Part shown: one piece after another, positions 33,739 to 58,612 of the stretch
How the letters are laid out: each line of letters opens with the position of its first letter
How positions within the stretch are numbered: the stretch's first letter is position 1
IMG/VR virus record: IMGVR_UViG_3300024268_000023
Source of the DNA: a virus
Lineage: Duplodnaviria > Heunggongvirae > Uroviricota > Caudoviricetes
Direction: 5' to 3' (one strand)
DNA length: 64,000 bases
Translations under genes and position numbers: made by a program
The notes under the pieces: generated by a model
Databases searched by the model: none
What the model was told of the DNA's origin: nothing
The model's input: the letters and a program-made list of their open reading frames with translations, nothing else

Positions 33739-34020
33739 TTATATTATTTCACTTATATTAATCGAAGGGTAGAGAAGAGCTTTAAGCCGCGCAAGACAAG
33801 AATCACAGAGAACTAAATGCGACGAATTATGGCCTCCGCAAATAATACACGCTCCAGCTCTTTCATGTTCAATAGCTTCTATTCGAGCCATCATTTCATT
33901 AAGAGTCATAGGAGTCAATGTATCTCCTATTTCAAACCTTATAGATTCCACATCATCCCTCCTCAGCCTCAAAAGCTTCCCAACTTGGATATACTTTTCC
34001 ATCACAACGGAAAATTTCAT
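33739..34020 (-). CDS. hypothetical Cys-rich protein (ends ...INISEII)
   Basis: Start is uncertain: the track ORF start at 34074 overlaps the upstream gene. Carries the shared C-terminal motif. Confidence 0.4.
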   Translation of the reverse strand: MKFSVVMEKYIQVGKLLRLRRDDVESIRFEIGDTLTPMTLNEMMARIEAIEHERAGACIICGGHNSSHLVLCDSCLARLKALLYPSINISEII

Positions 34021-34678
34021 ATCTGCCAGCTGCGGTTTGACATGAAGTGTCAAGACGAACAGAACACTCGCCAAAAGAATTGAATTTATCTACAATTTTT
34101 CGAATGTTTTCCACCTGTTCATCGCTCATCTTGTGCTCATAAATCCAGCGATTTACATCACCGTCTTCACCATATTGGAGGGTTTTGAAAGTGACCTGAT
34201 CGAATCCCATGGTGTTGAAATTCTCTGGAGTTAAAAAATCGAATTCATTTGTAAGAAGAATAACCATTCGATATGTACGAGGAACTATCGCATTTCTATT
34301 TGAAATTACTTTCCAAGCATTTAAATACTCTCGTACATTTGTGACAGAAAGAGTAATGACTTTTACACAATGATTTAAACCCCAATTATCAAAATGCTGA
34401 TTATGGGTTGTAAATTCAATATCACCATCAAAATCGTCGCAATTCCAAAGAACTCTGGCAACATCATTAACGTATTTCATGTTTTGAGTAGGGTCGCACT
34501 CTCCGGTGATAACTACTGCAGATTTATCTTTTGCAGCTTCGCGAAGTTTTTTCGCCCATTCTTTTGGGTCTTTTTCATATAGGTTTTCAAATGTGCCGGT
34601 GTTTTTATGTCCACGAGCTACGCACATAGGGCATTTATAAACACAAGGCTGATAGGGAACACTAACTTGCAAATTCAT
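33953..34678 (-). CDS. radical SAM domain protein
   Basis: CVYKCPMC (CxxxCxxC) cluster at residues 12-19. 241 aa. Confidence 0.6.
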   Translation of the reverse strand: MNLQVSVPYQPCVYKCPMCVARGHKNTGTFENLYEKDPKEWAKKLREAAKDKSAVVITGECDPTQNMKYVNDVARVLWNCDDFDGDIEFTTHNQHFDNWGLNHCVKVITLSVTNVREYLNAWKVISNRNAIVPRTYRMVILLTNEFDFLTPENFNTMGFDQVTFKTLQYGEDGDVNRWIYEHKMSDEQVENIRKIVDKFNSFGECSVRLDTSCQTAAGRYEIFRCDGKVYPSWEAFEAEEG

Positions 34679-34692
34679 TTAACCAACTCCAA

Positions 34693-34908
34693 TCATATGA
34701 TTTCATCTATTCCGATTGGTTCTAAGGGATTGGCAGTATCGTCAACGACAATCCAATCGCCATGAATCATTGTTTTGAAAAGGTTTCTAAATTCCAGTTC
34801 CCGTAAACTAAATTCACGGTTTTCCCAAGAATGAGATTCTTCACGTCGACGACGAATATATTTACGTGCAAAACCTTGAGGCCAATTATTCATGCTCCAA
34901 TCATCCAT
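34693..34908 (-). CDS. hypothetical protein (ends ...GIDEII)
   Basis: 71 aa with the shared C-terminal motif. Confidence 0.4.
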   Translation of the reverse strand: MDDWSMNNWPQGFARKYIRRRREESHSWENREFSLRELEFRNLFKTMIHGDWIVVDDTANPLEPIGIDEII

Positions 34909-35671
34909 CGTTTTTCCCCTCTAAAAATTCATCTTCAAGAACGATAACGTTTACTTTTCCAGAATGGGCAGTACAAGTATCAAGAGCAATAATGCCTTCA
35001 TCGTAATATGGTGAAAAATCAGCATCAGTGCCAAATTCACTACCTAAATATTTATCTTTTTGATAGCGTACTTTGCCCCAAGTTGTGTGCCAGTGGCCAC
35101 ATACAATGGTTTTATCTTTTTCGATAATTCCTTCGTGGGCCATTTGCATTCCGTTACGCCATCTGGCTTCTTCCCATCTGGAGTTGTGGGCTTCACGCCA
35201 GTCACAATCGTAAATATAATTCCTATCACATTGCCAATATTTTGGGCAATCATCAAGACAATTTACTGCAATCCAGCCATGCACAAAGATGTACTTTTCA
35301 GTTTCAAAATAGTTTACCATTTTATTTAGCAGAGGGCGGACGTTCATATAGCCAACGCCATAGTCGCCACTATCCTGCATAAATTCCATAGCCGTATCAA
35401 ATGTGCCATTCCCAATATCGTGAGAAGCAGGGAAACCGCGTTTGAATAATTCTTCAAGAAGGTCTTCATGATTTCCCTTGATGAGAATTTTATTTTTGAT
35501 TTGAGAGAGAAACTTGAGCATTTCAAGATTTTCTTCTCCTCGGTCAAAGTTATCACCACATGAAACCAGCCAGTGGTCGGGGTTGTTTTCATCCCAACCT
35601 GCTTCGGCGAGAGCTTCTTTAAGTGGTGTCAAAAAGCCATGAGCATCGCTATAAACAAAAAACTTTACCAT
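34901..35671 (-). CDS. calcineurin-like metallophosphoesterase (Ser/Thr phosphatase-like)
   Basis: DAHG, GDNFDRG and GNHE motifs. Confidence 0.8.
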   Translation of the reverse strand: MVKFFVYSDAHGFLTPLKEALAEAGWDENNPDHWLVSCGDNFDRGEENLEMLKFLSQIKNKILIKGNHEDLLEELFKRGFPASHDIGNGTFDTAMEFMQDSGDYGVGYMNVRPLLNKMVNYFETEKYIFVHGWIAVNCLDDCPKYWQCDRNYIYDCDWREAHNSRWEEARWRNGMQMAHEGIIEKDKTIVCGHWHTTWGKVRYQKDKYLGSEFGTDADFSPYYDEGIIALDTCTAHSGKVNVIVLEDEFLEGKNDG

Positions 35672-35910
35672 GGATTGTCTTCATCTTCCTCTCGTTCATC
35701 CCAATATTTTTCCAAAAGGGAAACGCCGTAAAGCATCAAATAACTAGCAGGAATTCCGAGGAATAAGAACCCACTGAAAAATCCAGCGATAAAAAAGACG
35801 ATAGGTATAATAACTCCAAGGAGCCAAATTAATACAACAGTGATTTCTTCATAATGATCCTCATAAAAGATCCAACAGAAGAAATCTAAAATCGGATTTC
35901 TTTTCATCAT
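35665..35910 (-). CDS. small membrane protein
   Basis: 81 aa with two TM helices. Confidence 0.4.
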   Translation of the reverse strand: MMKRNPILDFFCWIFYEDHYEEITVVLIWLLGVIIPIVFFIAGFFSGFLFLGIPASYLMLYGVSLLEKYWDEREEDEDNPW

Positions 35911-36122
35911 TTGTTATCCTCCTCATAAAGTTTTAAACAATATATTGCAAATGCGGCAATCCAAGAAGCTGGAATTGCACATAAAACTACAAATTTATTT
36001 TCAATAATTGAAGGGATTATGCACATGAGTACACTAAAAGCAGGAATCATCCATCCCAATACGGTAGGAATAATTTCCAATTCGTCAGGCCCGCTGACAA
36101 AAAGCCAATACAAAAAATCCAA
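35907..36122 (-). CDS. small membrane protein
   Basis: 71 aa with two TM helices. Confidence 0.4.
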   Translation of the reverse strand: MDFLYWLFVSGPDELEIIPTVLGWMIPAFSVLMCIIPSIIENKFVVLCAIPASWIAAFAIYCLKLYEEDNK

Positions 36123-36314
36123 AAAGAAATTTCGTTTCGTATTATCACTTCCTTAAACTACATCTTTAATTTCTACCTCTTGATAATAAGAGATATGGTG
36201 GTTACAACAAGGACAATGCTTGTCCTTGGGCTGACTATATCTAACGATAACAATTGCTCCACACAGCGGGCAACTAGCTACATATTGCATTGCTTAAAGA
36301 ACCTCCAATTCATT

Positions 36315-36512
36315 TTAGCTGTTTCTGGCTACTCCAACGAGCTTATGCAAATCATAAAAGTTCATTGGATTAAGCCCAGTTTCTTCTTTGATTTTTTTGA
36401 CGTGATAACGGATAGTGTTATAATGTGTATAAGTACCTCGAGACGTTTTTGCTACATCCATATTAAAATTAGCTAAAGCCAAAATGACTTCTTTATCTTT
36501 ATCAGTCATCAA
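36315..36512 (-). CDS. small HTH DNA-binding protein
   Basis: A TSRGTYTHYNTIRYHVKKI helix-turn-helix-like segment in a 65-aa ORF. Confidence 0.45.
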   Translation of the reverse strand: MMTDKDKEVILALANFNMDVAKTSRGTYTHYNTIRYHVKKIKEETGLNPMNFYDLHKLVGVARNS

Positions 36513-36810
36513 AACAAACCTCCTTGTCTGGATTAATCTGATATGTAAAATCCAATGTGTTTAAAGCAAACAAAACACCATCGGTAAAACCTTTGTCATA
36601 TGATTCGTTGCCGGTTGTAATCCAAGTTAAGTCGGGATATTCTTCTTCTTTTGAATCTAAAGCGGCTTTTCGTTTGTCTGTTGAATGCATTCGATTTTTA
36701 TATTCCCAATAATCAGAACCATGGTTTCTGCAAGATTTATCAATAGATTTAGCACCGTGATATTCTTTGCGGTGCTCTTTTTTATGCAAGATTGCTTTTG
36801 TAAGTGTCAT
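36502..36810 (-). CDS. hypothetical protein
   Basis: 102-aa ORF. Confidence 0.4.
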   Translation of the reverse strand: MTLTKAILHKKEHRKEYHGAKSIDKSCRNHGSDYWEYKNRMHSTDKRKAALDSKEEEYPDLTWITTGNESYDKGFTDGVLFALNTLDFTYQINPDKEVCFDD

Positions 36811-36964
36811 TTGGTTCCTCCATACATTCTAAATGATATATACAGCTATTAATGGTGAAAATAGCCACCATTTTATCGTGAGCATCAGCATAATAAGAGA
36901 GAAATTCTTGATTGTGTTTTAAATTTTCAAGCTCGGAAATTATTTCTTTGTAAGTTGGAATCAT
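36782..36964 (-). CDS. hypothetical protein
   Basis: 60-aa ORF in operon spacing. Confidence 0.3.
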   Translation of the reverse strand: MIPTYKEIISELENLKHNQEFLSYYADAHDKMVAIFTINSCIYHLECMEEPNDTYKSNLA

Positions 36965-37317
36965 TGAGCATCTCGCTTTCTTTGAAGTTTATGAACAATA
37001 CGCATAATCATCCGCCAAGAAAGTTCATGTGCAACTATCTTTATAAAGTCATAATAAGCACCGGCTGAAACCCAATGGTTAAATTCTTCTGAAAGCATAT
37101 CCACTCTCTTTTGTCTATGAGAAATAAAGTTATCATTTGGACTGAAACGAATGATATTATCTTCATCAATATATTCGGCGCAATATTTCATTGCCTCTTC
37201 TTCGTCTTCTTCAAGATATTCTCGTGTGAAGCATATATCTTTATGTGTGCACTTACTGCACAATGTGCTCATCGTCGTATCAACTCCTTTTAAATAATTT
37301 CTTCTATATCTAAACAA
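36961..37317 (-). CDS. hypothetical protein
   Basis: 118-aa ORF. Confidence 0.4.
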   Translation of the reverse strand: MFRYRRNYLKGVDTTMSTLCSKCTHKDICFTREYLEEDEEEAMKYCAEYIDEDNIIRFSPNDNFISHRQKRVDMLSEEFNHWVSAGAYYDFIKIVAHELSWRMIMRIVHKLQRKRDAQ

Positions 37318-37466
37318 TGATAAAGCGGATTAAGTTCAGTAGAATTTTTTTCAATTATCTTCTCCAGAATATAAACCACTTGATCCCTTGTGAATAACTT
37401 GGAATAATGAAACAACATAAATTTTTTGATTAACTTTTCAATATCATCAACCGGCACTGCTTTCAT
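37290..37466 (-). CDS. hypothetical protein (ends ...LDIEEII)
   Basis: Start moved to an internal Met to limit overlap with the upstream gene. Shared C-terminal motif. Confidence 0.35.
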   Translation of the reverse strand: MKAVPVDDIEKLIKKFMLFHYSKLFTRDQVVYILEKIIEKNSTELNPLYHCLDIEEII

Positions 37467-37818
37467 TTCTGGTTTCCTCCGGGAAAAAATATTTGAACCA
37501 ATCCGCAATTCTATGTACGGTTGTATTTTGAATTTTATATTCACCACTCGTGGTTTTATAAAAAGCCCTTATCGTAGAATCTTCGAAAAGTTCCAGCTCA
37601 AGAAAATCATCTGAATTTCCATAAGAAAACAGCAAGCTTTTATTTGAACCAGGATATACATTGGGGGCTTTTGGAAGTTTTGATAGAAGATAACGAGCAT
37701 GAGAAATAATTCTGTCGCTATATTTTTCGCATCCATTTGCGTCCCAATCTGGGGGTAGTTGCGAAAGTCGATAAAGCTGCATTCTGGCAGCGCTTATATC
37801 ACAAGACATTCTATCCAC
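37447..37818 (-). CDS. hypothetical protein
   Basis: 123-aa ORF. Confidence 0.4.
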   Translation of the reverse strand: MDRMSCDISAARMQLYRLSQLPPDWDANGCEKYSDRIISHARYLLSKLPKAPNVYPGSNKSLLFSYGNSDDFLELELFEDSTIRAFYKTTSGEYKIQNTTVHRIADWFKYFFPEETRNESSAG

Positions 37819-37823
37819 TCCTT

Positions 37824-38448: not shown

Positions 38449-38484
38449 GTCCTCCTTAATTTCAGAACATATGTTCTTTATTTT

Positions 38485-38736: not shown

Positions 38737-38740
38737 TATG

Positions 38741-38899: not shown

Positions 38900-38905
38900 C
38901 CTCCG

Positions 38906-39320: not shown

Positions 39321-39342
39321 CCCACCATTTCAAATTGTCGTT

Positions 39343-39480: not shown

Positions 39481-39499
39481 AGAAATCACCTTCATAAAA

Positions 39500-40286: not shown

Positions 40287-40289
40287 TCC

Positions 40290-40935: not shown

Positions 40936-41412
40936 TTATATCAATTCTTCTATTCCTACACCATTTTTAGGTTTTGGAGGATTCGCTTCATAAACCCACT
41001 GGAGAAAGGCTTCCTCATCAAATGCGGGAATTATTGCCGCCCTGATTGCACCGTACCCATTCATGAAATCGGCTTCCCAGAGATCGTCGGAATCTTCACC
41101 ATCTCCGCTAAGATGAAAAATTACTTCAGGAAACAGTTTAGAGATGCTCTGCATATCTTCATAATAATCATACCATTTCATATCATCATTAAGAAAACTT
41201 GAGTTAATTTCATCTTCAATATCAGTGATTTCAAATTCTCTTCCTTCGTAGCCTTGAACATAGATTTTTCCATCTCGTTCATAGGGATGTCTTTTATCTG
41301 AAGGGTCGATTTCTTCATCATACATACATTTATAGAATGCTTTATAAATATCAATAAACTGGTTTGGTTTAGCGTTATCAATACTGATGCTAAAGTATGT
41401 GTAATATCCCAT
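40936..41412 (-). CDS. hypothetical protein (ends ...GIEELI)
   Basis: 158 aa with the shared C-terminal motif. Confidence 0.45.
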   Translation of the reverse strand: MGYYTYFSISIDNAKPNQFIDIYKAFYKCMYDEEIDPSDKRHPYERDGKIYVQGYEGREFEITDIEDEINSSFLNDDMKWYDYYEDMQSISKLFPEVIFHLSGDGEDSDDLWEADFMNGYGAIRAAIIPAFDEEAFLQWVYEANPPKPKNGVGIEELI

Positions 41413-45952: not shown

Positions 45953-46219
45953 TTATATAATTTCTTCTATATTAATAACTTCAAGAGAAGCTACAAGCGT
46001 ATGCTCAGGGCAATTCCATCCTGAATCAACATCAAGTATTTGCCCAGTCTCATCATCATCCAGATAATGTCCTTCATTCCAATCTTCGAATTCTACTCCG
46101 TACCAGGGTTCCTCTTCGTCTTCCATAAACTCTCTGATGATTCCAGTTTTGCCAAGCAATGAATATTCACCATCAGGCACGGCTATACATTTAACTACCT
46201 GTCCATATTTAAATTTCAT
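45953..46219 (-). CDS. small paralog-family protein 1 (ends VINIEEII)
   Basis: 88 aa starting MKFKYGQVVKC. First member of a tandem array of 11 related small genes. Confidence 0.55.
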   Translation of the reverse strand: MKFKYGQVVKCIAVPDGEYSLLGKTGIIREFMEDEEEPWYGVEFEDWNEGHYLDDDETGQILDVDSGWNCPEHTLVASLEVINIEEII

Positions 46220-46233: not shown

Positions 46234-46539
46234 TTATATAATTTCTTTTATATTGACTGATTCAAAGAGCGGAGCTAAAACGTCAGGGGAACAGTACCAT
46301 CCTGTTAAAGGTGAAACCCACTCTTGTTCTTTATCATCGAAGATTGCGTGTCCGTCTCTAATTGGTTTATCAAAACAGACACCGACCCAATCATTCCTAT
46401 CGTTCTGATTTCCAAATCCTTTACGATTAACGCATAAGACTGTTCCAACTAGGCCAACAAAGGAACGACCTCGCTCGGTATCGGTTATGTCGGTTGGTTT
46501 TTTGGTGCATCTGACTCTCTGCCCATAATGGAATTTCAT
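46234..46539 (-). CDS. small paralog-family protein 2 (ends SVNIKEII)
   Basis: 101 aa starting MKFHYGQRVRC. Confidence 0.55.
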   Translation of the reverse strand: MKFHYGQRVRCTKKPTDITDTERGRSFVGLVGTVLCVNRKGFGNQNDRNDWVGVCFDKPIRDGHAIFDDKEQEWVSPLTGWYCSPDVLAPLFESVNIKEII

Positions 46540-46814
46540 ATGAGTTCATCAACTCCAATCGGCATTTCAAGAAGGATTAAGGTTTTTGGAGGGCAATACC
46601 AACCATGATCCCACGCTATGGCCTCACCGGTTTCTGCATCGTCAAGAGAGTGTCCGTTTTCAATTTCTTCATCAAATTCAACCCCGGGCCAAAGCTCGTC
46701 TTCTGAATCATAAGATGTTGTAAAATCACGGACTGTACCTATTTGCCCTACCACGGAACCATTTCCGTCAGCAACATCTATGCAACGTACTCTTTGACCG
46801 TAATAAAACTGCAT
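46536..46814 (-). CDS. small paralog-family protein 3 (ends PIGVDELI)
   Basis: 92 aa starting MQFYYGQRVRC. ATGA start/stop overlap with the neighbour. Confidence 0.55.
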   Translation of the reverse strand: MQFYYGQRVRCIDVADGNGSVVGQIGTVRDFTTSYDSEDELWPGVEFDEEIENGHSLDDAETGEAIAWDHGWYCPPKTLILLEMPIGVDELI

Positions 46815-46829: not shown

Positions 46830-47066
46830 TTATATAATTTCTTCTATATTAAGGATCTGAGAGCCTACAAACCCCCATGGAATAAACAGACCAATATCTC
46901 CGGTTACTTTTATTTCAGCATCATCAGGATCAATTATAGTAAGCCAATGCTCCGAGGCAGCGTGGACAGCCAGCGGTTTGTTCCCAAATTTAACCCAGTC
47001 ACTCCAAGTGAGCATATTTTTTTGTTCTGGGTTAATTTGTACTAAGTCTCCAGGCTTAATAAACAT
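46830..47066 (-). CDS. small paralog-family protein 4 (ends ILNIEEII)
   Basis: 78 aa. Confidence 0.5.
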   Translation of the reverse strand: MFIKPGDLVQINPEQKNMLTWSDWVKFGNKPLAVHAASEHWLTIIDPDDAEIKVTGDIGLFIPWGFVGSQILNIEEII

Positions 47067-47306
47067 CTATATCAACTCCTCAATGTTTATAATATCATCT
47101 ACCTTTTTTAGAGTAATTTTATAATAGCCGTAGTTCCATCCCAAACAGGCACTATTACAGTCAATCACTTTAAGCTTCCCAGAATAAATAAGCTCATCAT
47201 CTGCCGATATAATTCTTTCTATAAGATGGCCAGGAGTGAGTGGGAAACTAGATGTTATTACAAACCCATCGTCAATTTCTACTACCCAAGGGCTATAGTC
47301 TTTCAT
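47067..47306 (-). CDS. small paralog-family protein 5 (ends IINIEELI)
   Basis: 79 aa. Confidence 0.5.
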   Translation of the reverse strand: MKDYSPWVVEIDDGFVITSSFPLTPGHLIERIISADDELIYSGKLKVIDCNSACLGWNYGYYKITLKKVDDIINIEELI

Positions 47307-47614
47307 ATCAGTTCCTCTACGCCCACAGGAGCTTCGACTTTCCTGAGCTCAAGTTCTCCAGACTTAAACCAACGATGCTGACCTCGATCCGGTCGAACCT
47401 TCTCGTAAACATTTACAAGGTATTCTTTTCTCTTTTTCCCACCATCCCAGTAATCGTCTACCGAAAGGATTCTGCTTTCTCTGTTGGTTTTGTAAAGCCA
47501 ATAACGATCTTTGCCTCGCTGGCTAAATTCGACGAAATCGCCGATTTTAAATTTAGGTTTAAATCCCATATCGTACTCCTTTCTGAGACCGTTTTCTTTC
47601 AAGAAGATCAACAA
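47303..47614 (-). CDS. small paralog-family protein 6 (ends PVGVEELI)
   Basis: 103 aa. Confidence 0.5.
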   Translation of the reverse strand: MLIFLKENGLRKEYDMGFKPKFKIGDFVEFSQRGKDRYWLYKTNRESRILSVDDYWDGGKKRKEYLVNVYEKVRPDRGQHRWFKSGELELRKVEAPVGVEELI

Positions 47615-47802: not shown

Positions 47803-48051
47803 TCATATTAACTCAGAGATATTTATGGGTTCAGTTGTTTTTGCAATGTATTTGCAAGGTATAAACCAGCCATGATACATCTCACACAGGCCATTGCAAT
47901 CATGCAATTCGTCTTTTTTGACATCCCATCTTACCGGAACCCAAGCTAACTCGGTTGCTCTTTCACCTGCAACTACGCCAGTGTCTCCTTTTTCCACATA
48001 ATCAAAATCTTTTACACAAATAACTCTTTGTCCTTTTGAAAATTCCATCAT
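47803..48051 (-). CDS. small paralog-family protein 7 (ends EPINISELI)
   Basis: 82 aa starting MMEFSKGQRVIC. Confidence 0.55.
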   Translation of the reverse strand: MMEFSKGQRVICVKDFDYVEKGDTGVVAGERATELAWVPVRWDVKKDELHDCNGLCEMYHGWFIPCKYIAKTTEPINISELI

Positions 48052-48353
48052 ATAAGCTCATCAACTCCCACCAATTCCCATGCTGCTTCAATCAATTTAA
48101 CATTGTCATGAAGTTTAGCTACATAACAAGCTCCGGTAACTCGTTTGAAATCACTGTCGCAGTAGTTATTAGGGTCGTCCAACATTACAAGAGCCCATCC
48201 GATGAATCGGCTATCATCACTACCGCCTGGTCTAGTTCCAAGTTCTTCAACCATTTCCTTTGTGAGATATCCGATAACTCTTCCTCTGTCTGCACAACCA
48301 TTGTTGGTGAATTCTACTCTGTCACCGATGCTCAAGCCAGATATGTTGTTCAT
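48048..48353 (-). CDS. small paralog-family protein 8 (ends LVGVDELI)
   Basis: 101 aa. Confidence 0.5.
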   Translation of the reverse strand: MNNISGLSIGDRVEFTNNGCADRGRVIGYLTKEMVEELGTRPGGSDDSRFIGWALVMLDDPNNYCDSDFKRVTGACYVAKLHDNVKLIEAAWELVGVDELI

Positions 48354-48369: not shown

Positions 48370-48609
48370 TTAGATTAAATCAGATATGTTTATAACTGGA
48401 ATTTTTCTGCCGATTCTGCGAACTTCTTCTGTTCCAATTTTAAAATGATGATGGCGTTTTCCATTCTCGTATTTTACTACGGCATATTCAGTGTGAGGAT
48501 CTAATCCAGATCCTCTGTCGATACGAATAACTTCACCTCGACCCCAGACTTTGTTCCAATATTTTGTTCCTTCGACAATGTCACCGATTTCAAGCACAAG
48601 GTCACTCAT
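48370..48609 (-). CDS. small paralog-family protein 9 (ends VINISDLI)
   Basis: 79 aa. Confidence 0.5.
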   Translation of the reverse strand: MSDLVLEIGDIVEGTKYWNKVWGRGEVIRIDRGSGLDPHTEYAVVKYENGKRHHHFKIGTEEVRRIGRKIPVINISDLI

Positions 48610-48911
48610 ATCAATTCCTCCAATCCAACAATGTCAGATGTAGCAATAACTACTTTTTTGATACAAAAACGGTTCCAATACCAACCATGACCGAAGATGC
48701 CTTCTTCTGAATCTTCTTCCATTTGGACGGTGGGATTGTCTCCGTCATTGTATGCTGCACTTTTTACTGTCATCTTTTTGCCAAGCCAATGATCCATTTC
48801 GCCAAACGAATTTTCTTTGCAAAGCCCATCAAGATCCCACTCATCAACTATGAGCACAGAATCTCCCGGCTTCAAATTCTGAAAAGCTTTCTCACTTATC
48901 ATCGTGCTCAA
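48606..48911 (-). CDS. small paralog-family protein 10 (ends IVGLEELI)
   Basis: 101 aa. Its start overlaps the RT stop codon. Confidence 0.5.
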   Translation of the reverse strand: MSTMISEKAFQNLKPGDSVLIVDEWDLDGLCKENSFGEMDHWLGKKMTVKSAAYNDGDNPTVQMEEDSEEGIFGHGWYWNRFCIKKVVIATSDIVGLEELI

Positions 48912-51138: not shown

Positions 51139-51576
51139 TTATATGATTTCGTTTATGTTTACAGATTCATTCTGTTTGAAAATCTGAGCATAATTTCCAA
51201 CTGCATTGGGAGCAACATCAGACTCTATAGAGCGCTGAATACCGCAATATTCCCACAAATCTCCGTTGTATAATTCTTCGTTATCTTCTAAGTCTTCGCC
51301 AATGTGAACGTAAACGTATTGGATGTTTTCGCTGTCACAATGATACAGATATTGCATCGTCGCATCTACATCGGAAAATTCACGGTACCATTTTGTGGTA
51401 TATATTTTTGCCAATATTACAGGATTGGATGGGTCTTTTCGATTTTCAAACAAACTGTAATCATCAGCATGCGTCCAAGTGCGATGCGCTTCCTCGTTGG
51501 AAGCTTTGAAATGATTGAGCATATCCATAAAATCTTTTTTATACATTGCAAGTCCAACATCACTGTAGTATCCCAT
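51139..51576 (-). CDS. hypothetical protein (ends SVNINEII)
   Basis: 145 aa with the shared C-terminal motif. Confidence 0.45.
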   Translation of the reverse strand: MGYYSDVGLAMYKKDFMDMLNHFKASNEEAHRTWTHADDYSLFENRKDPSNPVILAKIYTTKWYREFSDVDATMQYLYHCDSENIQYVYVHIGEDLEDNEELYNGDLWEYCGIQRSIESDVAPNAVGNYAQIFKQNESVNINEII

Positions 51577-51587
51577 ACAAAGCCTCC

Positions 51588-52001
51588 TTATATGAGCTCA
51601 TCGATTCCGACGAGTTCTATGATTTCATTTGTAACGTAGTAAACTTCGTTATATTCTCTGATATCTCTCAAAACCCATTCTTCATCAAGTTCTTCGGATT
51701 GAATATAACTCGAAAGATATGTGATATTTGCGTCACTATTGAATGAAGCTGAGTCAAACTCATCAAAAGCCTCATCAAGATCGTAATCATAGAACGGGGC
51801 AAAGATTCTGTGATCCTCACCAAACGCCCAAAGGCTTGTATAGCCAAGCGCCTTTGCTTGATCTGGGTTATGGACAAGAACAGCCACTCTTTTCTTTGCA
51901 ATGCGAGACAACTCGTCTGGAGTGATGGGCATAGGATTTAACCCAAATCCGTCCCGTATAAATTTGCAAAATTTTCTATTTGCCTCCTGTTCAGAAAACA
52001 T
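51588..52001 (-). CDS. hypothetical protein (ends LVGIDELI)
   Basis: 137 aa with the shared C-terminal motif. Confidence 0.45.
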   Translation of the reverse strand: MFSEQEANRKFCKFIRDGFGLNPMPITPDELSRIAKKRVAVLVHNPDQAKALGYTSLWAFGEDHRIFAPFYDYDLDEAFDEFDSASFNSDANITYLSSYIQSEELDEEWVLRDIREYNEVYYVTNEIIELVGIDELI

Positions 52002-52014: not shown

Positions 52015-52329
52015 TCAAATTATTTCTTCAATATTAACTAAGGAGAAATCACTTGTGAGTTCGTCTCCAGTGAAATACTCCCATTCTTCTGTGAAATCAA
52101 CTCGATAAGTATTGACGAGGTCTGGTGAATCATCCCAAGTGTCTTCAAAGCATCTCGAGACCACGCCTTTGTCCCCAATTTGAATTTTTTCCGTGGGAGG
52201 CTCAGAATGACACTGCCGCACATAAATGACGCGGTCTCCTTCTTTGAACTTGAATTTAGTACCCATACTGACTACCATACTGGTTACCGTAAAATCCTTT
52301 GTAACTACCGTACTGAGCAATAGCATCAT
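52015..52329 (-). CDS. hypothetical protein (ends LVNIEEII)
   Basis: 104 aa with the shared C-terminal motif. Confidence 0.45.
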   Translation of the reverse strand: MMLLLSTVVTKDFTVTSMVVSMGTKFKFKEGDRVIYVRQCHSEPPTEKIQIGDKGVVSRCFEDTWDDSPDLVNTYRVDFTEEWEYFTGDELTSDFSLVNIEEII

Positions 52330-53296: not shown

Positions 53297-53308
53297 AAAT
53301 TTCCCTCC

Positions 53309-54775
53309 TTAACTGTTTTCTCTAAGCCATGCAACTGCATCTATGTAGTTTACTTTGCGTCCATCAGGAAGAAGATAAGGACACTGATGTTTATTCCAAA
53401 GCTGTTCTTTGGAGTATCTTTCAACTACGCAATCATCGGTGAATACGAGATATGGGCAAGAACCAATTGCCTGAGAAACGGCACCAACGTAGTTGCCGAC
53501 GCTCATGCATTCAGTCATTCTGCTCTCGTTGGTTCCAAGACATCTGTAATAGTAATGATGCGGCTGGGGAGCATATCCGGCGAATTTAGGAGCGGGTTCG
53601 CAAAGTCCCGGTTCATCTTTGCTTATTACAGAAAGAGTTCCGCGCTCAAGGGAAAGTCTGAAGTTCGAATAAACAGGAACCTTAATTTCACGCTCAATAA
53701 AGACTGACTCCATGAGCTTGATTGCTTCTTTTTCAGTAATTTCCTTTTCTTTATCGCGATAAGCACAGTAAATTCTTCTGCGGATATCATCAATGTCATG
53801 AGTCGGGTCTTTAAACGCTGTGAGATTTGCGGTGGCGGTAAAAATGAGATCATTGCCTTGCCAAGTGCGAATCGCAATTGAAGGTCTTCCAGTGAAAAGA
53901 ACTGCAAGTTCAGAGCCATCACCATCTTCGTCTACCTCAAGAGAACGTTTTCTAAGATAGCTATCCCTGATGCGTGCTGCATAATCTTCAAGCTTTGCAA
54001 CGGTATCACGATACTGTCTGTTAAGATTATCCAGTTCAGAGGTCGCATTACGAAGGAGTTTTCCTTTTACGCTTTTGTAAGCATTTTTGAATTTGATGCT
54101 CTGTACTTTTTCAGCAACATCAGTTCCTTCATAAATTTTCTGAGCAGCGGCAACAAATTCGTTATCACCAATGTCGATAGCTCTAACAAGTTCTCTTTCA
54201 AGTTCATTGAGGGGATGGTTTTCAAAAGTAAAATCGGGTTTCACATTGAAATACCAAGGAATAATTCTGGGGCATACTGCTGCACACACGTTCCAGAAAT
54301 ATTCACCAACGATAGAACCGACAACGACTGAAATCTTGTCTTTTTCGTTGTAATAAGTTTGAATAAAGTCGCCTTCATTTTTATATTCCTGTTTTTCGAT
54401 GCGACCATCGAAAAACTTATTTACTATATCGTTAGGCACAAAGCCACGTTTTGTAAAAATAGCTTTGAGCGGAGTTTTCAAAGTTTTGTACTGTCCTACA
54501 TAAATGTAGTAAAGGGAACCAGGTGTAAGTTCCAGTGCTTCAACTTTTCCCTTTGTGCCATCGACGGTTTCGTTTGCGAAGTTTATGGAAGTAAAGTTGA
54601 AGATTTCCCCATCTTTAAGTCTCGGAGGAAGACATGCTCTAAAGACGATACGGGGAACCTCGTGTTTGTCTTGTTCAGTTCCATGCTCTACGATGTTCGG
54701 ATAACATTCGGCAAGGGCAAGCTCGCCTATTTCGATGTGGGTAGAGAGCTCAGCTACAGGATATCTTTCATCCAT
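53309..54775 (-). CDS. large hypothetical protein in E1/JAB neighbourhood
   Basis: 488 aa with several Cys/His pairs near the C-terminus. No E2 HPN motif seen. Confidence 0.45.
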   Translation of the reverse strand: MDERYPVAELSTHIEIGELALAECYPNIVEHGTEQDKHEVPRIVFRACLPPRLKDGEIFNFTSINFANETVDGTKGKVEALELTPGSLYYIYVGQYKTLKTPLKAIFTKRGFVPNDIVNKFFDGRIEKQEYKNEGDFIQTYYNEKDKISVVVGSIVGEYFWNVCAAVCPRIIPWYFNVKPDFTFENHPLNELERELVRAIDIGDNEFVAAAQKIYEGTDVAEKVQSIKFKNAYKSVKGKLLRNATSELDNLNRQYRDTVAKLEDYAARIRDSYLRKRSLEVDEDGDGSELAVLFTGRPSIAIRTWQGNDLIFTATANLTAFKDPTHDIDDIRRRIYCAYRDKEKEITEKEAIKLMESVFIEREIKVPVYSNFRLSLERGTLSVISKDEPGLCEPAPKFAGYAPQPHHYYYRCLGTNESRMTECMSVGNYVGAVSQAIGSCPYLVFTDDCVVERYSKEQLWNKHQCPYLLPDGRKVNYIDAVAWLRENS

Positions 54776-54868
54776 TTGCGGTTCACTCCTTATTTGAATG
54801 TAAAATTATTTTGAAAGGGAAGGAGGGTGGTTGCCCACCCTCCATAGAAAAGGGAATGGGTCGAACGA

Positions 54869-55090
54869 TTAAGCGTTCTGAAGTTTGTTGGAAACAACGA
54901 TGTCAACGATGTTGCTTCCATCAGCGAGAGAATTGAGAGTGACGTTGCAATCGGTTACAACATCGGAGTTGACGATGATCTGTCTGGAGGTGGCAATGCC
55001 GTGTCCTTCGCAGAACTGTTTGAGGGTCATGCCTCCATCAACGATTTCGGATTTGCAGTTGGAATCAACAGAATAGTAAACCTGTACCAT
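54869..55090 (-). CDS. small beta-rich protein, possible ubiquitin-like (ThiS/MoaD-like) candidate
   Basis: 73 aa. LADGSNIVDIV resembles the MoaD/ThiS C-terminal strand, but the protein ends ...KLQNA rather than GG. Confidence 0.3.
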   Translation of the reverse strand: MVQVYYSVDSNCKSEIVDGGMTLKQFCEGHGIATSRQIIVNSDVVTDCNVTLNSLADGSNIVDIVVSNKLQNA

Positions 55091-55202
55091 AATATAAATC
55101 TCCTTTTAATATATAAATTTTAATTTGATTTGAATTGAATTTTGTTTGTGAGATTGACGGGAGAGGAGAAAACTAACTCCTCTCCCTAAAGCCTGTTCTC
55201 AA

Positions 55203-55589
55203 TCAGATGACAGTGACTGTTTCTCTGATAGCGGCTTTTTCTTTCTCGATTTCCTTGAGGGCAGTTGCGATATTTGCTTCAACTTTGTTTACACGAAGAA
55301 TTGCAACGCCAACTGCTTCTACCACGAGGTCTTCGGCTTTGCCAGCACCTTTGGGGAGAGGCATAGTGAGGCAAGCGACAGATTTTTCTGCGTGGGTTTC
55401 ATCGTTGAACTGAACGCAGAAGGTGTCGATCTGTGCCTTTTCACCGAATCCTACGGCGAAAACAGGACGCTTGTCCTCGTCGAAGAGTTTGAGGAGATTG
55501 GGACGGTATTTTGCGACAGTCTGGATTTCCTCCTTGGTGTATTCGCTTTCGATTACGTAGACGCTACCAGCGACTTTGATTTTTGCCAT
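55203..55589 (-). CDS. hypothetical protein
   Basis: 128-aa ORF. Confidence 0.45.
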   Translation of the reverse strand: MAKIKVAGSVYVIESEYTKEEIQTVAKYRPNLLKLFDEDKRPVFAVGFGEKAQIDTFCVQFNDETHAEKSVACLTMPLPKGAGKAEDLVVEAVGVAILRVNKVEANIATALKEIEKEKAAIRETVTVI

Positions 55590-55659: not shown

Positions 55660-56076
55660 TTAAATAAGTTCTTCTATGTTTATAAGGTCATATTCAGAAT
55701 CCTTAATAACATAGCAATGATCTATGCCGGTGTTGTCCCGGTACCATTCAACAGAAGAAAAGATTTCCTCTTTTGATGTTCCCGGCATCCAACCCTCGTA
55801 AAACGGCTGGAAGTCCCTGTTATTAAAATCTTCGGGCTCATCAGAACCCTCCAAGCAATAGATTCGAGGCAGAGCATCGAAGTGCAACCAATAATATACA
55901 CTGGATGATTCGTTCATGATTTTTTGCTTTTGTTCATCTGAAGCGAAATAAACAAAGCTTTCTTTTCCGCTTTCTGCTCGAGAAATAAATTCCTTTATTG
56001 AAATTTTCTTTACAGGGAAATGGCACTGTTCGCAAGCTTCAATGAAATGGTATGTTAAATCTTTTGTTGGTTCCAT
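55660..56076 (-). CDS. hypothetical protein (ends LINIEELI)
   Basis: 138 aa with the shared C-terminal motif. Confidence 0.45.
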   Translation of the reverse strand: MEPTKDLTYHFIEACEQCHFPVKKISIKEFISRAESGKESFVYFASDEQKQKIMNESSSVYYWLHFDALPRIYCLEGSDEPEDFNNRDFQPFYEGWMPGTSKEEIFSSVEWYRDNTGIDHCYVIKDSEYDLINIEELI

Positions 56077-56077: not shown

Positions 56078-56425
56078 TCATATCAACTCCTCTATGTTCA
56101 CAAGCGTTCCAGCAGCAGGAACGATATAATACTCCAAGTCATTCCAATCTTCATTGTCGTAAATAGACTTAAGATTGCCGCTTGTAAAATAAGTGTTCTT
56201 CGAGTATAGCGGATTGAACAGAAGCATATTTGCATATCCATAGCCGGAATTGATGTTCATGCTACCGAACAATACCTTTTCGGAGGGGTTCTCCGTCACC
56301 AAAACGCACATTCCGTGTTCTTTTGTTTGACGAAGACAACGGATTTGTTCAAGAGTCATAAACCTCAAACGCGATTCGTGCCCATGGCTGGTGACACCTT
56401 GGATAAAATCTTCCTTTGATATCAT
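56078..56425 (-). CDS. hypothetical protein (ends LVNIEELI)
   Basis: 115 aa with the shared C-terminal motif. Confidence 0.45.
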   Translation of the reverse strand: MISKEDFIQGVTSHGHESRLRFMTLEQIRCLRQTKEHGMCVLVTENPSEKVLFGSMNINSGYGYANMLLFNPLYSKNTYFTSGNLKSIYDNEDWNDLEYYIVPAAGTLVNIEELI

Positions 56426-57158: not shown

Positions 57159-57173
57159 TTTTATTTTCCTTTC

Positions 57174-57617
57174 TTAAATGATTTTGAACAGTTTTACAGG
57201 CTTATTGATGGTTAGATTGAATGCAGAATGAATTTTGAAATCGATGTCGTCATTAAGGGTGTAATCATATATACCGCCTTTATATGTAGCACCCATATTG
57301 CAACAAAGATGTGGTGGGTCTACAACTTGAAGAACTTTCCGTACGGAAGAGTCGTAGAAGTATTCTCCACACTTTAAAGATCGATATTCTTCATAGGACA
57401 TCGGAACTTTGCAAACCATAAATAATTCGGATCGAGCACCCTCAGAGTCATTGCGACCATCGGGTTCAGAACGGCCCCAACCGTTCCATACGATGCCGAT
57501 ATAGTTGCCATAAGTTGAAATGATTTTCCCTACACGAGGAGCCGTGAAAGTATTGTTATAAGCAATTAAATCGCCAACTTTGAGATTTTTAAACTGTTCT
57601 TCGGTAAGCATTTTCAT
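57174..57617 (-). CDS. hypothetical protein (N-terminal paralog-like motif FKNLKVGDLIAY)
   Basis: 147 aa. Its N-terminus resembles the following small paralogs. Confidence 0.45.
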   Translation of the reverse strand: MKMLTEEQFKNLKVGDLIAYNNTFTAPRVGKIISTYGNYIGIVWNGWGRSEPDGRNDSEGARSELFMVCKVPMSYEEYRSLKCGEYFYDSSVRKVLQVVDPPHLCCNMGATYKGGIYDYTLNDDIDFKIHSAFNLTINKPVKLFKII

Positions 57618-57625
57618 TTCCTTTC

Positions 57626-57868
57626 TTATATGATCTCAGATATGTTTATAGTTGAGAACTGCGGGTAAGAGTCAAAACACTTTAGCCCTGACGGCTCATT
57701 TGTATAGTGGTATTCATTAGAAGATATTCTCCATGCAACACTTATTCTATTGGGCCGCACCTTTGTAACATTTCCGAACATACCTTTTAAGTTGGCATCC
57801 CCCCAATCACAAGAATGAAGAACCTTATCGCCAACTTTAAGGTTATCAAATTGTTCTTTGGTTATCAT
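57626..57868 (-). CDS. small paralog-family protein (ends TINISEII)
   Basis: 80 aa with an N-terminal FDNLKVGDKVLHS. Confidence 0.5.
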   Translation of the reverse strand: MITKEQFDNLKVGDKVLHSCDWGDANLKGMFGNVTKVRPNRISVAWRISSNEYHYTNEPSGLKCFDSYPQFSTINISEII

Positions 57869-58137
57869 ATGATTTCCTCCAGACGTACGGAATTATTTGG
57901 ATATTGAAATTCATAATCAGCAAGAAGCGGGAGAGTATATTTTATTTCTGAAGAAACATCATTCCACTTTATAAACACGGTGCGTCCGTCTTCGGGAGTT
58001 ACCTTGGTAACGATGCCATATACAATCCTCTTTATGTAAAGCTTTGTTCCAGGGCAAAGCTTATCAAAATCCTGCTTTGTCATATGATTTCCTCCAATCC
58101 AACCAATGCTACGGGGTTTGAAACAAAACGAACCCAA
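57865..58137 (-). CDS. small paralog-family protein (ends SVRLEEII)
   Basis: 90 aa with an N-terminal FDKLCPGTKLYIK. Confidence 0.45.
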   Translation of the reverse strand: MGSFCFKPRSIGWIGGNHMTKQDFDKLCPGTKLYIKRIVYGIVTKVTPEDGRTVFIKWNDVSSEIKYTLPLLADYEFQYPNNSVRLEEII

Positions 58138-58319
58138 TTCTCGACTTCATTATACTTGTATGTTTCGTCAAGCGTTTGGTTTGTATTGGAAACTCTTACC
58201 CAATGAACTTTGATAGTGCCGTTGTCATGGAATGCTTGCGTTACAACTCCATTCCAAGTGCTATTTGAGTTGGTGACCTTTGATCCAGCACGGAGGCTTT
58301 CAAATTCCTTTAACGTCAT
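58080..58319 (-). CDS. small paralog-family protein (ends LVGLEEII)
   Basis: 79 aa with an N-terminal FESLRAGSKV. Overlaps its neighbour by 58 nt, so the start is uncertain. Confidence 0.4.
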   Translation of the reverse strand: MTLKEFESLRAGSKVTNSNSTWNGVVTQAFHDNGTIKVHWVRVSNTNQTLDETYKYNEVENWVRFVSNPVALVGLEEII

Positions 58320-58612
58320 ATGAGTTCCTCCAATCCTACAGGAGATGTTGCAAAACCTTCAAAGAGAGTTTCGCAATAGTTCCATCCGCGAGAGCATTCT
58401 TCGATTCGTACCGCAAAATACTCTTTGCCTTCGTTGTCAGAAGTCCATAAATACGGATTTGTTTTTACGGTAACAATTTTACCTTCGAATTCCCTCATGT
58501 TATCATTTACATACTCGGGCCAGCCGCCATCGAAAACGTTCCAATCAGAGAAGAATTTTACTTTATCGCCAGGACGAAGCTTTATAAAACTCTCATGTTT
58601 CATTGTTGTCAC
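58316..58612 (-). CDS. small paralog-family protein (ends PVGLEELI)
   Basis: 98 aa. Confidence 0.5.
   Translation of the reverse strand: MTTMKHESFIKLRPGDKVKFFSDWNVFDGGWPEYVNDNMREFEGKIVTVKTNPYLWTSDNEGKEYFAVRIEECSRGWNYCETLFEGFATSPVGLEELI

Follow-up and report, generated by a model that had tools for sequence, protein, structure and literature searches.

The window analysed here, a 64 kb stretch of DNA, represents about half of a ~129 kb gut phage genome. Its minus strand carries 23 small genes with a common C-terminal tail, with a Bil-like Ubl/E2/JAB/E1 module and a retron lying between them. In transcription order this accessory region precedes the genes for DNA polymerase, primase-helicase, RNR and ligase, which share its strand, and the tagged genes are interspersed with DUF3846 and DpnD/PcfM-like genes, which we take to be typical of anti-restriction and leading regions. 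Phage tail-protein genes at 36-10774 are on the opposite strand, and the phage genome encodes an integrase. The tagged ORFs are 71-158 aa long, the low coordinate of each being its stop codon. They are listed here with one related paralog:

33739..34074, minus strand, ORF of 111 aa, Cys-rich body, tail SINISEII
34693..34908, minus strand, 71 aa, singleton body, tail PIGIDEII
37290..37547, minus strand, 85 aa, singleton body, tail CLDIEEII
40936..41412, minus strand, 158 aa, "MGYY" family, tail GVGIEELI
45953..46219, minus strand, 88 aa, SH3_12-like family, tail VINIEEII
46234..46539, minus strand, 101 aa, SH3_12-like family, tail SVNIKEII
46536..46814, minus strand, 92 aa, SH3_12-like family, tail PIGVDELI
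46830..47066, minus strand, 78 aa, singleton body, tail ILNIEEII
47067..47306, minus strand, 79 aa, singleton body, tail IINIEELI
47303..47614, minus strand, ORF of 103 aa (source contig call: 88 aa), singleton body, tail PVGVEELI
47803..48051, minus strand, 82 aa, SH3_12-like family, H-x-C..C..H-G-W loop, tail PINISELI
48048..48353, minus strand, 101 aa, singleton body, tail LVGVDELI
48370..48609, minus strand, 79 aa, singleton body, tail VINISDLI
48606..48911, minus strand, 101 aa, family B, directly downstream of RT, tail IVGLEELI
51139..51576, minus strand, 145 aa, "MGYY" family, tail SVNINEII
51588..52001, minus strand, 137 aa, singleton body, tail LVGIDELI
52015..52329, minus strand, ORF of 104 aa (source contig call: 87 aa), tail LVNIEEII
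55660..56076, minus strand, 138 aa, singleton body, tail LINIEELI
56078..56425, minus strand, 115 aa, singleton body, tail LVNIEELI
57174..57617, minus strand, 147 aa, family-B paralog, degenerate tail PVKLFKII without acidic residue
57626..57868, minus strand, 80 aa, family B, tail TINISEII
57865..58137, minus strand, ORF of 90 aa (source contig call: 72 aa), tail SVRLEEII
58080..58319, minus strand, 79 aa, tail LVGLEEII
58316..58612, minus strand, 98 aa, family B, tail PVGLEELI

ORF starts are uncertain for 33739, 47303, 52015 and 57865. The true start of 33739..34074 is probably internal to the ORF, which overlaps a radical-SAM gene (33953-34678).

The original prediction of 23 C-terminally tagged proteins was accurate in every coordinate, and all 23 ORFs terminate in [VIL]-[NGDR]-[ILV]-x-[ED]-[LI]-I. 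It had described a hexapeptide, and the conserved ending is in fact seven residues long, since V, I or L occupies position -7 in all 23. Isoleucine is invariant at -1, followed by L (12) or I (11) at -2, E (22) or D (1) at -3, E (13), S (4), D (4), N (1) or K (1) at -4, I (16), L (4) or V (3) at -5, and N (12), G (9), D (1) or R (1) at -6. No further ORF of at least 40 aa on either strand ends in [ED][LI]I (472 ORFs, 64 kb). Composition alone predicts 0.05 such tails per ~123 genes, and the proposed comparison with shuffled controls gives a mean of 0.0065 and a maximum of 1 (2000 within-ORF residue shuffles) against the 23 observed. The last seven positions hold ~20 bits of information, and the hexamer pattern occurs internally only twice in ~19,000 residues. 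The motif is thus confined almost only to the extreme C-terminus.

The bodies that precede this ending are mostly distinct. There is an SH3_12-like family with four tagged members (45953, 46234, 46536, 47803) and a "MGYY" family with two (40936, 51139). Profile searches join 48606, 57626, 58316 and the untagged 57174 into family B, to which 57865 is linked by BLAST (E 2.5e-4); the connection of 58080 is weak (E 2e-3). Judged by profile searches, at least ~15 bodies are distinct in sequence, so the tagged set is not one expanded paralog family; with three families present, their description as "otherwise unrelated" was somewhat overstated. Several tail carriers are SH3-like barrels.

The tail is separable from these bodies. 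Homologues of the "MGYY" proteins in Streptomyces phages and Pectobacterium phage CBB end before the tail or diverge from it, and in 40936..41412 the tail sits after a ~30-residue extension that those homologues lack, with an EEAFLQWV motif 18 residues before the C-terminal end. The orthologues of 51139 (62-63% identity) end in ANINELI, ANINEII and ANIEELI. In the SH3_12-like family, 16/29 single-domain representatives carry the tail, as opposed to 0/114 larger ones (50% clusters), and relatives bear it on genes without a counterpart in the window. These comparisons support the view that the tail is an add-on to differing bodies. In the AF2 model of the 46536 protein, the barrel (residues 1-81) is confident, with pLDDT >90 in most blocks, while block-mean pLDDT falls to 62 over residues 81-90 and 44 over the last two, residues 89-92 all being below 50. 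The model shows no secondary structure over the final ~11 residues, so the tail appears there as an unstructured, flexible appendage. The proposal of a docking or degron tag with a shared partner is partly supported, since a separable tail that is unstructured in the model is how such a peptide would look.

Could the tail instead be a relic of common descent, the best-conserved C-terminal strand of one old and rapidly diverged paralog family? A similar xxGDxV start and an SH3-like look recur in many tagged bodies, two families have at least four members, and eight of the nine tagged genes of the related phage L074 are plainly paralogous. We nevertheless find this very improbable: 12 of the 23 bodies are singletons in BLAST and even jackhmmer searches, tail-less homologues exist for the "MGYY" family (145-158 aa) in distant phages and are plentiful for SH3_12, the AF2 model places the tail beyond the fold, and conservation is lowest (35%) in the residues that link the two.

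Conservation was attributed to the protein rather than to a DNA repeat, and the codons bear this out. Leucine at -2 is written with five codons (ttg, ctc, ctg, tta, ctt) and serine at -4 with two unrelated ones (agt, tct). Across 36 homologue pairs between the window and its relatives, identity is 74% in the tail, 48% in the bodies and 35% in the six residues just upstream, with 49 synonymous codon differences inside the tails; close orthologues also swap NIEEII and GVDELI. By these sequence comparisons, the tail is kept by purifying selection at the protein level. A second constraint lies on the same DNA. GGAG or GAGG occurs in 40/83 tails, typically as tt-GGAGGA-actgat-ATGA, where the stop and the following start codon overlap. 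In roughly half of the genes, one stretch of DNA thus encodes the tail and also supplies the Shine-Dalgarno site, spacer and start (ATGA overlap) of the following gene, which places it under dual constraint. Tail codons show less synonymous variation than body codons (31% vs 46%, p = 4e-4), also in tails without GGAG/GAGG (26%, p = 9e-4), and the final codon is ATA in 19/23 tails, although ATA accounts for 23% of all Ile codons. Some constraint thus acts on the nucleotides as well, beyond what we can fully explain. These features, together with the GTGA that closes the FLEVIx codons in the related phage L010, would be expected if the conserved end were only the next gene's ribosome-binding site, spacer or start overlap, another RNA or DNA signal, or a recombination linker, read as protein. 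That origin is highly unlikely. The other 43/83 tails keep the motif without GGAG/GAGG and are followed by a separate AGGAG site of their own, codons vary freely inside one genome, and the amino-acid pattern (as a variant in L058) is kept at both 40% and 58% GC. A ribosome-binding site accounts at most for x-E-[ED], not for [VI]-[NG]-[ILV] or [LI]-I. Its overlap with the tail is an added constraint and not the explanation.

The proposed search of related phages found the same tail. The 83 tails come from four related genomes, with I at -1 in 83/83 and E (79) or D (4) at -3. Other relatives vary the ending. In L058 (58% GC) the proteins end in ...PPLDDLI or ...PPIDDLI, the latter also on the 48606 homologue, written in GC-rich codons (ccc-atc-gac-gat-ctg-atc). 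Beside the same module, small genes recurrently end in ...[VIP]SIS[NK]LI in L062, in [DE]xxFLx[ILV][LI] (...FLEVIL) in L010, where FLEVIx is coded ttc-CTGGAGGTGAT-xxx-GTGA, and in ...ECxCxSLL in L074. With eight of its nine tagged genes in one paralog family, the L074 "code" could reflect family ancestry. L053 and L054 have the same neighbouring module but show no recurrent tail in the 10-20 kb covered. Endings that differ between lineages at corresponding positions suggest a co-evolving receptor, more likely encoded by the phage than a conserved host hub.

This divergence bears on the idea that the tail marks proteins for degradation, with a host AAA+ protease (ClpXP, ClpCP, Lon, FtsH) or a phage adaptor recognising it. 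Early and possibly toxic proteins would then be kept short-lived, or the host proteins they bind delivered for destruction; a phage with an integrase would have reason to silence leaky early proteins. The tail occurs strictly at the C-terminus, lacks structure, and finishes on two aliphatic residues in each lineage variant (LI, II, LL, IL). The ssrA and MuA tags are recognised at a free C-terminus, Parsell, Silber and Sauer reportedly found in 1990 that non-polar C-terminal residues destabilise proteins in bacteria, and phage SPO1 is reported to encode a ClpC adaptor-like protein (bioRxiv 10.1101/569657). A degron is nonetheless possible rather than likely. The sequence does not resemble the ...LAA ends of the ssrA type, acidic residues at -3 and -4 reportedly stabilised proteins in the classic tail experiments on Arc and lambda repressor, seven specified positions exceed the needs of known protease tags, and strong divergence between related phages is unexpected if a conserved host protease reads the tag.

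Lineage-specific codes would also fit a phage-encoded scaffold or capsid receptor, with the tail steering small anti-defence proteins to the procapsid so that they are co-injected, much as the T4 capsid-targeting sequence and encapsulin cargo-loading peptides do. The T4 internal proteins are otherwise unrelated small proteins of a variable region that have a short terminal peptide in common, a pattern that the tagged genes show. The T4 gp21 prohead protease has the consensus (L/I)-x-E, so the [ILV]-x-E of the tail matches it and might be a T4-type prohead-protease site. Virion targeting is still distinctly improbable, as the tagged genes accompany the early and replication genes, on the other strand from the phage tail-protein genes, cleavage after E would take off only two residues, and a cargo set of over 23 distinct proteins would be out of the ordinary.

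The receptor could also lie within the tagged set, if the SH3_12 / CAP-Gly-like barrels bound the tails of other members and so built a multiprotein assembly. CAP-Gly domains bind the EEY/F tails of EB1, tubulin and CLIP-170, and CLIP-170 bears both domain and tail. CAP-Gly domains account for nearly all of the best PDB fold matches of the 46536 model (Foldseek E 4e-3 to 1e-1, prob ~1.0, TM <=0.74 on target), profile matches to dynactin and TBCB CAP-Gly are sub-threshold but near full-length, and CAP_GLY scores 19-21 bits in tandem homologues. The tail (acidic, acidic, hydrophobic, COOH) is chemically like EEY/F, but its last residue is aliphatic where theirs is aromatic. Moreover, the defining GKNDG motif of CAP-Gly is absent, replaced by "GH", often inside a Cys/His loop; Pfam assigns the family to SH3_12 and not to CAP_GLY; PsaE, Xrn1-SH3 and YorP match the barrel too; and the L062 variant lacks the acidic residues. 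We hold such a self-binding network to be quite unlikely.

Equally doubtful is a role in the neighbouring ubiquitin-like system, in which the tail would bring the tagged proteins to the E2-like 488-aa protein, or to a different Ubl-E2-JAB-E1 part, either to be modified or to act as interchangeable substrate receptors. Tagged genes flank the module in every lineage with recurrent tails (window, L003, L007, L013, L058, L062, L010, L074). The E2-like protein has extra domains beyond its UBC/RWD-like one and is the most divergent component (21-29% identity between lineages vs 42-53% for E1), as expected of a co-evolving receptor. With an E1-like enzyme, a JAB peptidase and an E2-like protein among the tagged genes, the flexible tails might themselves be ThiF/E1 substrates, adenylated and conjugated via the C-terminus in the manner of CD-NTases acted on by Cap2 in CBASS. 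We know of no E1 substrate with such bulky Leu-Ile or Ile-Ile ends. Moreover, the module owns a Ubl-like gene (73 aa) whose C-terminus, ...K-[AMV]-[DN]-N-A, is conserved across lineages whose small-protein tails differ completely. In CBASS, non-Ubl proteins are reported to be conjugated via a disordered C-terminal tail (PMC10097602), but we regard the same fate here as extremely unlikely.

The resemblance to a class III PDZ ligand extends to the pattern (E at P-2), but the acidic position is lost in the ...SISNLI lineage, and the 44 window proteins scanned against Pfam contain no PDZ domain, nor any recognised TPR or similar peptide-binding domain. The sole large uncharacterised neighbour of the tagged genes looks E2-like, and not like a peptide-binding module, which counts against the docking-tag reading that follows. 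As had been supposed, we found no description of such a phage C-terminal tag in the literature. The best reading is that the tagged set consists of early host-takeover proteins carrying a portable C-terminal docking tag, a short linear motif of the form [V/I/L]-[N/G/D/S]-[I/L/V]-x-E-[L/I/F]-I-COOH, to which we give a probability of about 0.55. One pocket of a single common receptor would take up the free carboxylate together with the aliphatic side chains at -7, -5, -2 and -1, and this receptor may degrade the tagged proteins or their bound targets, or concentrate, modify or package them. A large and fast-turning-over repertoire of small "binder + tag" proteins could in this way be coupled to one shared machine. 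The PVKLFKII ending of 57174..57617 may be a decayed or divergent tag.

All 23 of the small minus-strand ORFs for which the original prediction claimed a shared C-terminal ending exist, and all 23 end in the predicted peptide. The motif stands, but what had been described as a hexapeptide is one residue longer, since all 23 also have V, I or L at -7. Counted back from the free C-terminus, the tail has N (12), G (9), D or R at -6, I, L or V at -5, mostly E, D or S at -4, E (22) or D (1) at -3, L or I at -2, and I at -1 in 23/23. The information held in these last seven positions amounts to about 20 bits. Among the 472 ORFs of at least 40 aa on both strands of the window, [ED][LI]I-COOH is found in the 23 alone. 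Composition would lead one to expect 0.05 such ends in about 123 genes, and the comparison with shuffled controls that had been proposed earlier gives a mean of 0.0065 when residues are shuffled within each ORF, never more than 1, against the 23 observed. The hexamer pattern occurs internally only twice in about 19,000 residues, and thus the extreme C-terminal position is part of the signal. The finding is real and statistically overwhelming, and neither gene overlap nor a single paralog family explains it. The best-supported reading, to which we assign a probability of roughly 0.55, is that of a portable C-terminal docking tag common to many small early proteins; trivial readings of the shared ending deserve next to no credence, each taken singly.

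The window is the right-hand half of a metagenome-assembled phage contig of about 129 kb (ENA ERZ27248436 k141_1681163), and the same protein is present on 18 contigs, mostly of 50-200 kb. A 15 kb megablast against 50,697 phage records gave no nucleotide match to the window, and four tagged proteins found no tblastn match in the same records; homologues in cultured phages are limited to the MGYY family, whose two tagged members are 40936 and 51139 (genes are named by their low coordinate). Judging by where relatives of the E1 protein encoded among the tagged genes occur, the host is probably a member of the Oscillospirales or Clostridia. The overall layout is as follows:

36-10774, plus strand: genes including one for a minor tail protein
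from 11176, minus strand: almost all genes, including those for an integrase, a ligase, RNR, DNA polymerase, a primase-helicase, an exonuclease and a Sak4-like protein

Upstream of the replication genes in the order of transcription lie about 25 kb of small genes, split by a tRNA array, and it is in this region that the tagged genes are found.

The bodies of the tagged proteins were compared by BLAST and jackhmmer after removal of the tails. A four-member family (45953, 46234, 46536, 47803) emerges, together with a second family that profile searches assemble from 48606, 57626, 58316 and the untagged 57174; 57865 is linked to the latter by BLAST (E 2.5e-4), and 58080 weakly so (E 2e-3). There is also one pair (40936 and 51139), and 12 proteins are singletons. 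A single recently expanded, fully alignable paralog family, which the original prediction had named as an outcome that would weaken it, is thus rejected, although its wording that the bodies are "otherwise unrelated" proves somewhat too strong, given two multi-member families and a pair beside the 12 singletons. The pair belongs to a widespread phage family with the signature MGYY...KWY...GE[ED], whose members in Streptomyces phages and in Pectobacterium phage CBB lack the tail. The four-member family lies within a very large one (2,356 representatives at E <= 1e-3), in which members with tandem repeats score above threshold for Pfam SH3_12. Of the best 143 new representatives from this large family, 29 are single-domain proteins and 16 of these carry the tail; the 114 larger ones all lack it. 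In related phages the tail is also found on genes that are missing from the window.

The earlier view that conservation acts on the protein, and not through a DNA repeat, holds for the peptide itself but has to be qualified for its coding DNA. Within the window, the tail codons vary (Leu ttg, ctc, ctg, tta and ctt; Ser agt and tct; Asn aat and aac; Gly gga and ggc). In 36 homologue pairs, identity is 74% in the tail, 48% in the bodies and 35% in the six residues just upstream from the tail. Nearly all tail replacements in these pairs stay within the motif, close orthologues exchanging NIEEII and GVDELI, and 49 differences in the tails are synonymous. Across 83 tails from the window and its relatives, position -1 is I in 83/83, and E (79) or D (4) occupies -3. 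The same peptide is kept at 40% and at 58% GC.

At the DNA level the tail takes two forms. In the first, NIxE[IL]I is followed by TAA, with an AGGAG site of its own further on. In the second, G[LV]EELI is encoded as ..tt-GGAGGA-actgat-ATGA, so that the tail codons themselves include the Shine-Dalgarno sequence, the spacer and the next gene's overlapping start. When GGAG or GAGG is sought within the tail codons, 5-13 nt before the next start, 40/83 tails contain it; the other 43 use a separate downstream AGGAG instead. These 43 tails, the varied codons and the persistence of the peptide at 40% and 58% GC lead us to reject a pure ribosome-binding-site artefact. Nevertheless, conserved residues show fewer synonymous differences in tails than in bodies (31% vs 46%, p = 4e-4), also in tails without a Shine-Dalgarno sequence (26%, p = 9e-4). 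The last codon is ATA in 19/23 tails, compared with 23% of the Ile codons of the window, and it is ATA in 9 of the 12 tagged genes with a TAA or TAG stop, where no ATGA overlap requires it. No RNA family of Rfam matched the tail-coding segments. Selection, we conclude, acts on the peptide as such, and extra, partly unexplained constraints bear on the DNA that encodes it. The tails also offer a concrete case of dual coding, in that the ribosome-binding site of the following gene shares its nucleotides with a functional peptide.

Related genomes, in which the original prediction had proposed looking for the same tail, do carry it. Three close relatives (L003, L007 and L013) have 18-23 tail genes each; their orthologues of a 145-aa protein are 47-66% identical to that of the window and their E1 proteins 87-90%. 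In a distant relative at 58% GC, L058 (E1 47% identical), the tails read ...PPLDDLI and ...PPIDDLI, with the codons ccc-atc-gac-gat-ctg-atc, and one of them sits on a homologue of 48606. Searches with E1 found relatives in MAGs of Oscillospiraceae, Acutalibacteraceae, Lachnospiraceae and Ca. Heritagella, as well as in metagenomes and in one GenBank gut-phage fragment. Several of these lineages have endings of their own. In L062 (34% GC), five small genes end in ...VSISNLI, ...PSISNLI, ...ISISKLI, ...VNVRSLI and ...VEIKGLI. In L010 (59% GC; L010:1343-11545), [DE]xxFLx[ILV][LI](x0-6) closes at least six different small proteins, for instance as EEKFLEVIL or EEEFLKILG. In L074 (GenBank MT835544, 20516-33244), nine small proteins end in ...[NE]ECxCxSLL; this last case is weaker because eight of the nine form one paralog family (Y.PGD.V..R.DL...W[TS]D.MFE), the other having a different SH3-like body. 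No recurrent ending was seen within the stretches covered of L053 and L054, and an IMG/VR relative of E1 at 31% identity (L001) is without tails. A DNA pattern degenerate for NIEE[LI]I plus a stop was run against IMG/VR: the 35 loci it returned have at most one tail ORF each, none is a multi-tag locus, and they are chance matches. What the lineages share is an aliphatic C-terminal pair after a lineage-specific pattern. We therefore infer that the tag co-evolves with its reader, which favours a reader encoded by the phage. As a separate observation, the L010-type motif also occurs on some two-domain SH3_12 homologues, and the window protein 40936 (40936-41412) holds both EEAFLQWV, of that type, and a NIEELI-type tail.

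An AlphaFold2 model of 46536, built from a 31-sequence alignment, predicts a confident SH3-like barrel over residues 1-81. Beyond it, block-mean pLDDT falls to 62 (residues 81-90) and 44 (the last two), with every residue from 89 to 92 under 50; no secondary structure is predicted for the final 11 or so residues. The tail of this model is flexible and hangs off the barrel, which is how a short linear motif that folds upon binding should look. As for a reader, Pfam detects no PDZ, TPR or other peptide-binding domain, nor CAP_GLY, above threshold in 44 window proteins. The class III PDZ ligand put forward in the original prediction fits the window, where x-[DE]-x-Φ is found in 23/23 tails (E at P-2, Ile at P0) and where, with relatives included, the acidic position is kept in all 83; it does not fit L062, where ...SISNLI, ...SISKLI, ...VRSLI and ...IKGLI have lost the acidic P-2. 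Bacterial PDZ proteins are mostly extracytoplasmic.

The barrel itself offers another candidate. The closest PDB folds to the 46536 model are CAP-Gly domains (Foldseek, E 4e-3 or weaker), with PsaE, Xrn1-SH3 and YorP also matching, and the SH3_12-like carriers give near full-length, sub-threshold profile matches to the CAP-Gly domains of dynactin and TBCB. In the CAP-Gly system, a small SH3-like barrel reads EEY/F-COOH tails on unrelated proteins (EB1, alpha-tubulin, CLIP-170, p150Glued), which like the tag are C-terminal and run acidic-acidic-hydrophobic, and some proteins have both barrel and tail; the fold predicted for the four tagged family members appears closest to this one. The system differs in being eukaryotic and in its aromatic terminal residue and GKNDG loop. 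That loop is absent from the SH3_12-like carriers, which have x-x-G-H-x in its place; the terminal residue is Ile in all 83 tails, with Phe found only at -2 in some variants; and the phage family is SH3_12 in Pfam, above its own cut-off in homologues, while CAP_GLY reaches 19-21 bits against a cut-off of 26.5. The similarity is thus a lead, not membership, and a network in which tagged proteins bind each other's tails in CAP-Gly fashion is unlikely. At the position of GKNDG in CAP-Gly domains, many of the SH3_12-like proteins (47803-48051, P0024, P0031, P0036 and others) show an H-x-C-x(2-3)-C ... H-G-W loop that may bind zinc; 46536 and 45953 have lost its Cys residues. Some proteins of the family consist of up to nine tandem repeats.

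Two further features lie among the tagged genes:

50442-55589, minus strand: conserved six-gene module with the look of a Bil-like ubiquitin-like (Ubl) conjugation system
48908-50441, minus strand: retron-type reverse transcriptase (NCBIfam retron St85, 3.5e-48; PADLOC RT_II-A, 1e-43)

The module includes a 128-aa protein, a 73-aa ThiS/Ubl-like protein ending in ...NA, a 488-aa protein with weak matches to UBC/RWD (E2-like) folds, including BilB and Cap2, a JAB peptidase (HSHx7SxxD) and ThiF/E1. It is found in all relatives (Oscillospirales MAGs and metagenomes), in the common gene order 128-aa protein, Ubl-like protein (72-82 aa), 440-506-aa protein, JAB, ThiF/E1, spacer and reverse transcriptase, the last always adjoining the E1 gene. 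The module looks like a phage-borne Bil-like ubiquitin-like conjugation system. The spacer of about 390 nt before the reverse transcriptase is non-coding. It contains a hairpin that resembles a terminator, and a conserved 5' part and a variable middle are enclosed by a conserved long-range inverted repeat (TCCATATC ... GATATGGA). This arrangement is msr/msd-like, and Rfam gives no retron msr or other match in the spacer. We know of no described association between a reverse transcriptase and Ubl, E1 and JAB proteins.

Tagged proteins as substrates of this E1 are rejected: the modelled carrier is predicted to be an SH3-like barrel and not a beta-grasp fold, and the cognate 73-aa Ubl-like protein ends in ...NA in all lineages, as opposed to LI, II or LL in the tags. 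That the tagged proteins serve the module as clients or adaptors, which its position among their genes brings to mind, is improbable. A precedent is provided by poxvirus ankyrin-PRANC and cellular F-box proteins, large fast-evolving families of binders whose common small module at the C-terminus couples them to a single ubiquitin-ligase scaffold; PRANC differs in being a folded domain of about 40 residues that binds host Skp1, as compared with seven residues here. It is a long shot that the tags form the docking code of a phage ubiquitin-like ligase, with the small proteins as interchangeable substrate receptors or as substrates and with lineage-specific tag/E2 pairs, a bacterial-virus counterpart of F-box/PRANC that would mark host defence proteins.

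Degradation and packaging also use terminal peptides. Like ssrA and other C-terminal degrons recognized by ClpX, ClpA or FtsH, the tag is flexible (low pLDDT in the model), has a free C-terminus and non-polar last residues (LI or II), and could be attached to any protein. However, ssrA, which tmRNA adds during translation, terminates in ...LAA, whereas the tag is genetically encoded, specifies seven positions with acidic residues and varies between related phages; a degron is a possible but doubtful reading. Targeting to the virion is less probable still. It recalls the T4 CTS of IPI, IPII and IPIII, likewise a short terminal peptide on otherwise unrelated small proteins of variable regions; in T4 the receptor is phage-encoded and some of the cargoes act against host defences. 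Packaging is a proven role of the CTS, which is N-terminal and is cut off by the prohead protease; the tag is C-terminal, and its genes lie among early and replication genes. Encapsulin cargo-loading peptides are C-terminal too (about 10 residues on unrelated cargoes) and bind inside an HK97-fold shell, but their consensus (...LxIGSLK...) is unrelated and their cargo genes adjoin the shell gene.

The docking reading has its own parallels in the SSB tip (...DDD[IL]PF) and the tails of T7 gp2.5 and gp4, where an acidic stretch followed by a hydrophobic C-terminus docks into a pocket; in T7, two different proteins with a common tail type bind one hub, the DNA polymerase. Unlike the tag, these longer and more acidic tails terminate in Pro-Phe or Phe, and they have one or two carriers rather than 23. 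The tag can thus be classed with known terminal sorting or docking peptides, as a new variant; in the literature, no description was found of such a tag, nor of a Ubl-reverse transcriptase module in phages. No pool of proteins of unknown function is larger than that encoded by the early and accessory genes of phages, and its members are usually handled singly. When more than 20 proteins of one genome carry a portable tag, and sister lineages have tags of their own, a common hub or pathway is implied. The reader protein can be sought directly with a peptide bait: a pull-down with a 9-12 residue peptide could expose the hub and hence a step shared by dozens of orphan proteins. If the hub were a protease, a ubiquitin-like ligase or a capsid, the tag could become a tool in Firmicutes, as a degron, recruitment or packaging handle.

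The surroundings of the tagged genes show other features. The tRNA array (41438-44402, minus strand) comprises 12 tRNA genes (ARAGORN), of which the one at 42559-42628 has an odd anticodon loop; a further, weak tRNA match at 43450-43554 comes from Rfam. Inside it are a skipping-rope RNA (42093-42162) and an HNH endonuclease gene (42800-43204), and a drum RNA (44287-44402) lies just past its last tRNA. The Cys-rich tagged ORF 33739-34074 (minus strand) shares its upstream end with a radical-SAM-like gene (33953-34678, minus strand; CxxxCxxC; sub-threshold Pfam match, 2.9e-4), and a metallophosphatase gene is found at 34901-35671. Between the isolated tagged genes 34693, 37290 and 40936, about 18 consecutive small genes at 35665-40903 (minus strand) are untagged; among them is one for a DpnD/PcfM-like protein (40532-40903). 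This family and that of the DUF3846 protein at 60790-61155 are typical of anti-restriction and leading regions.
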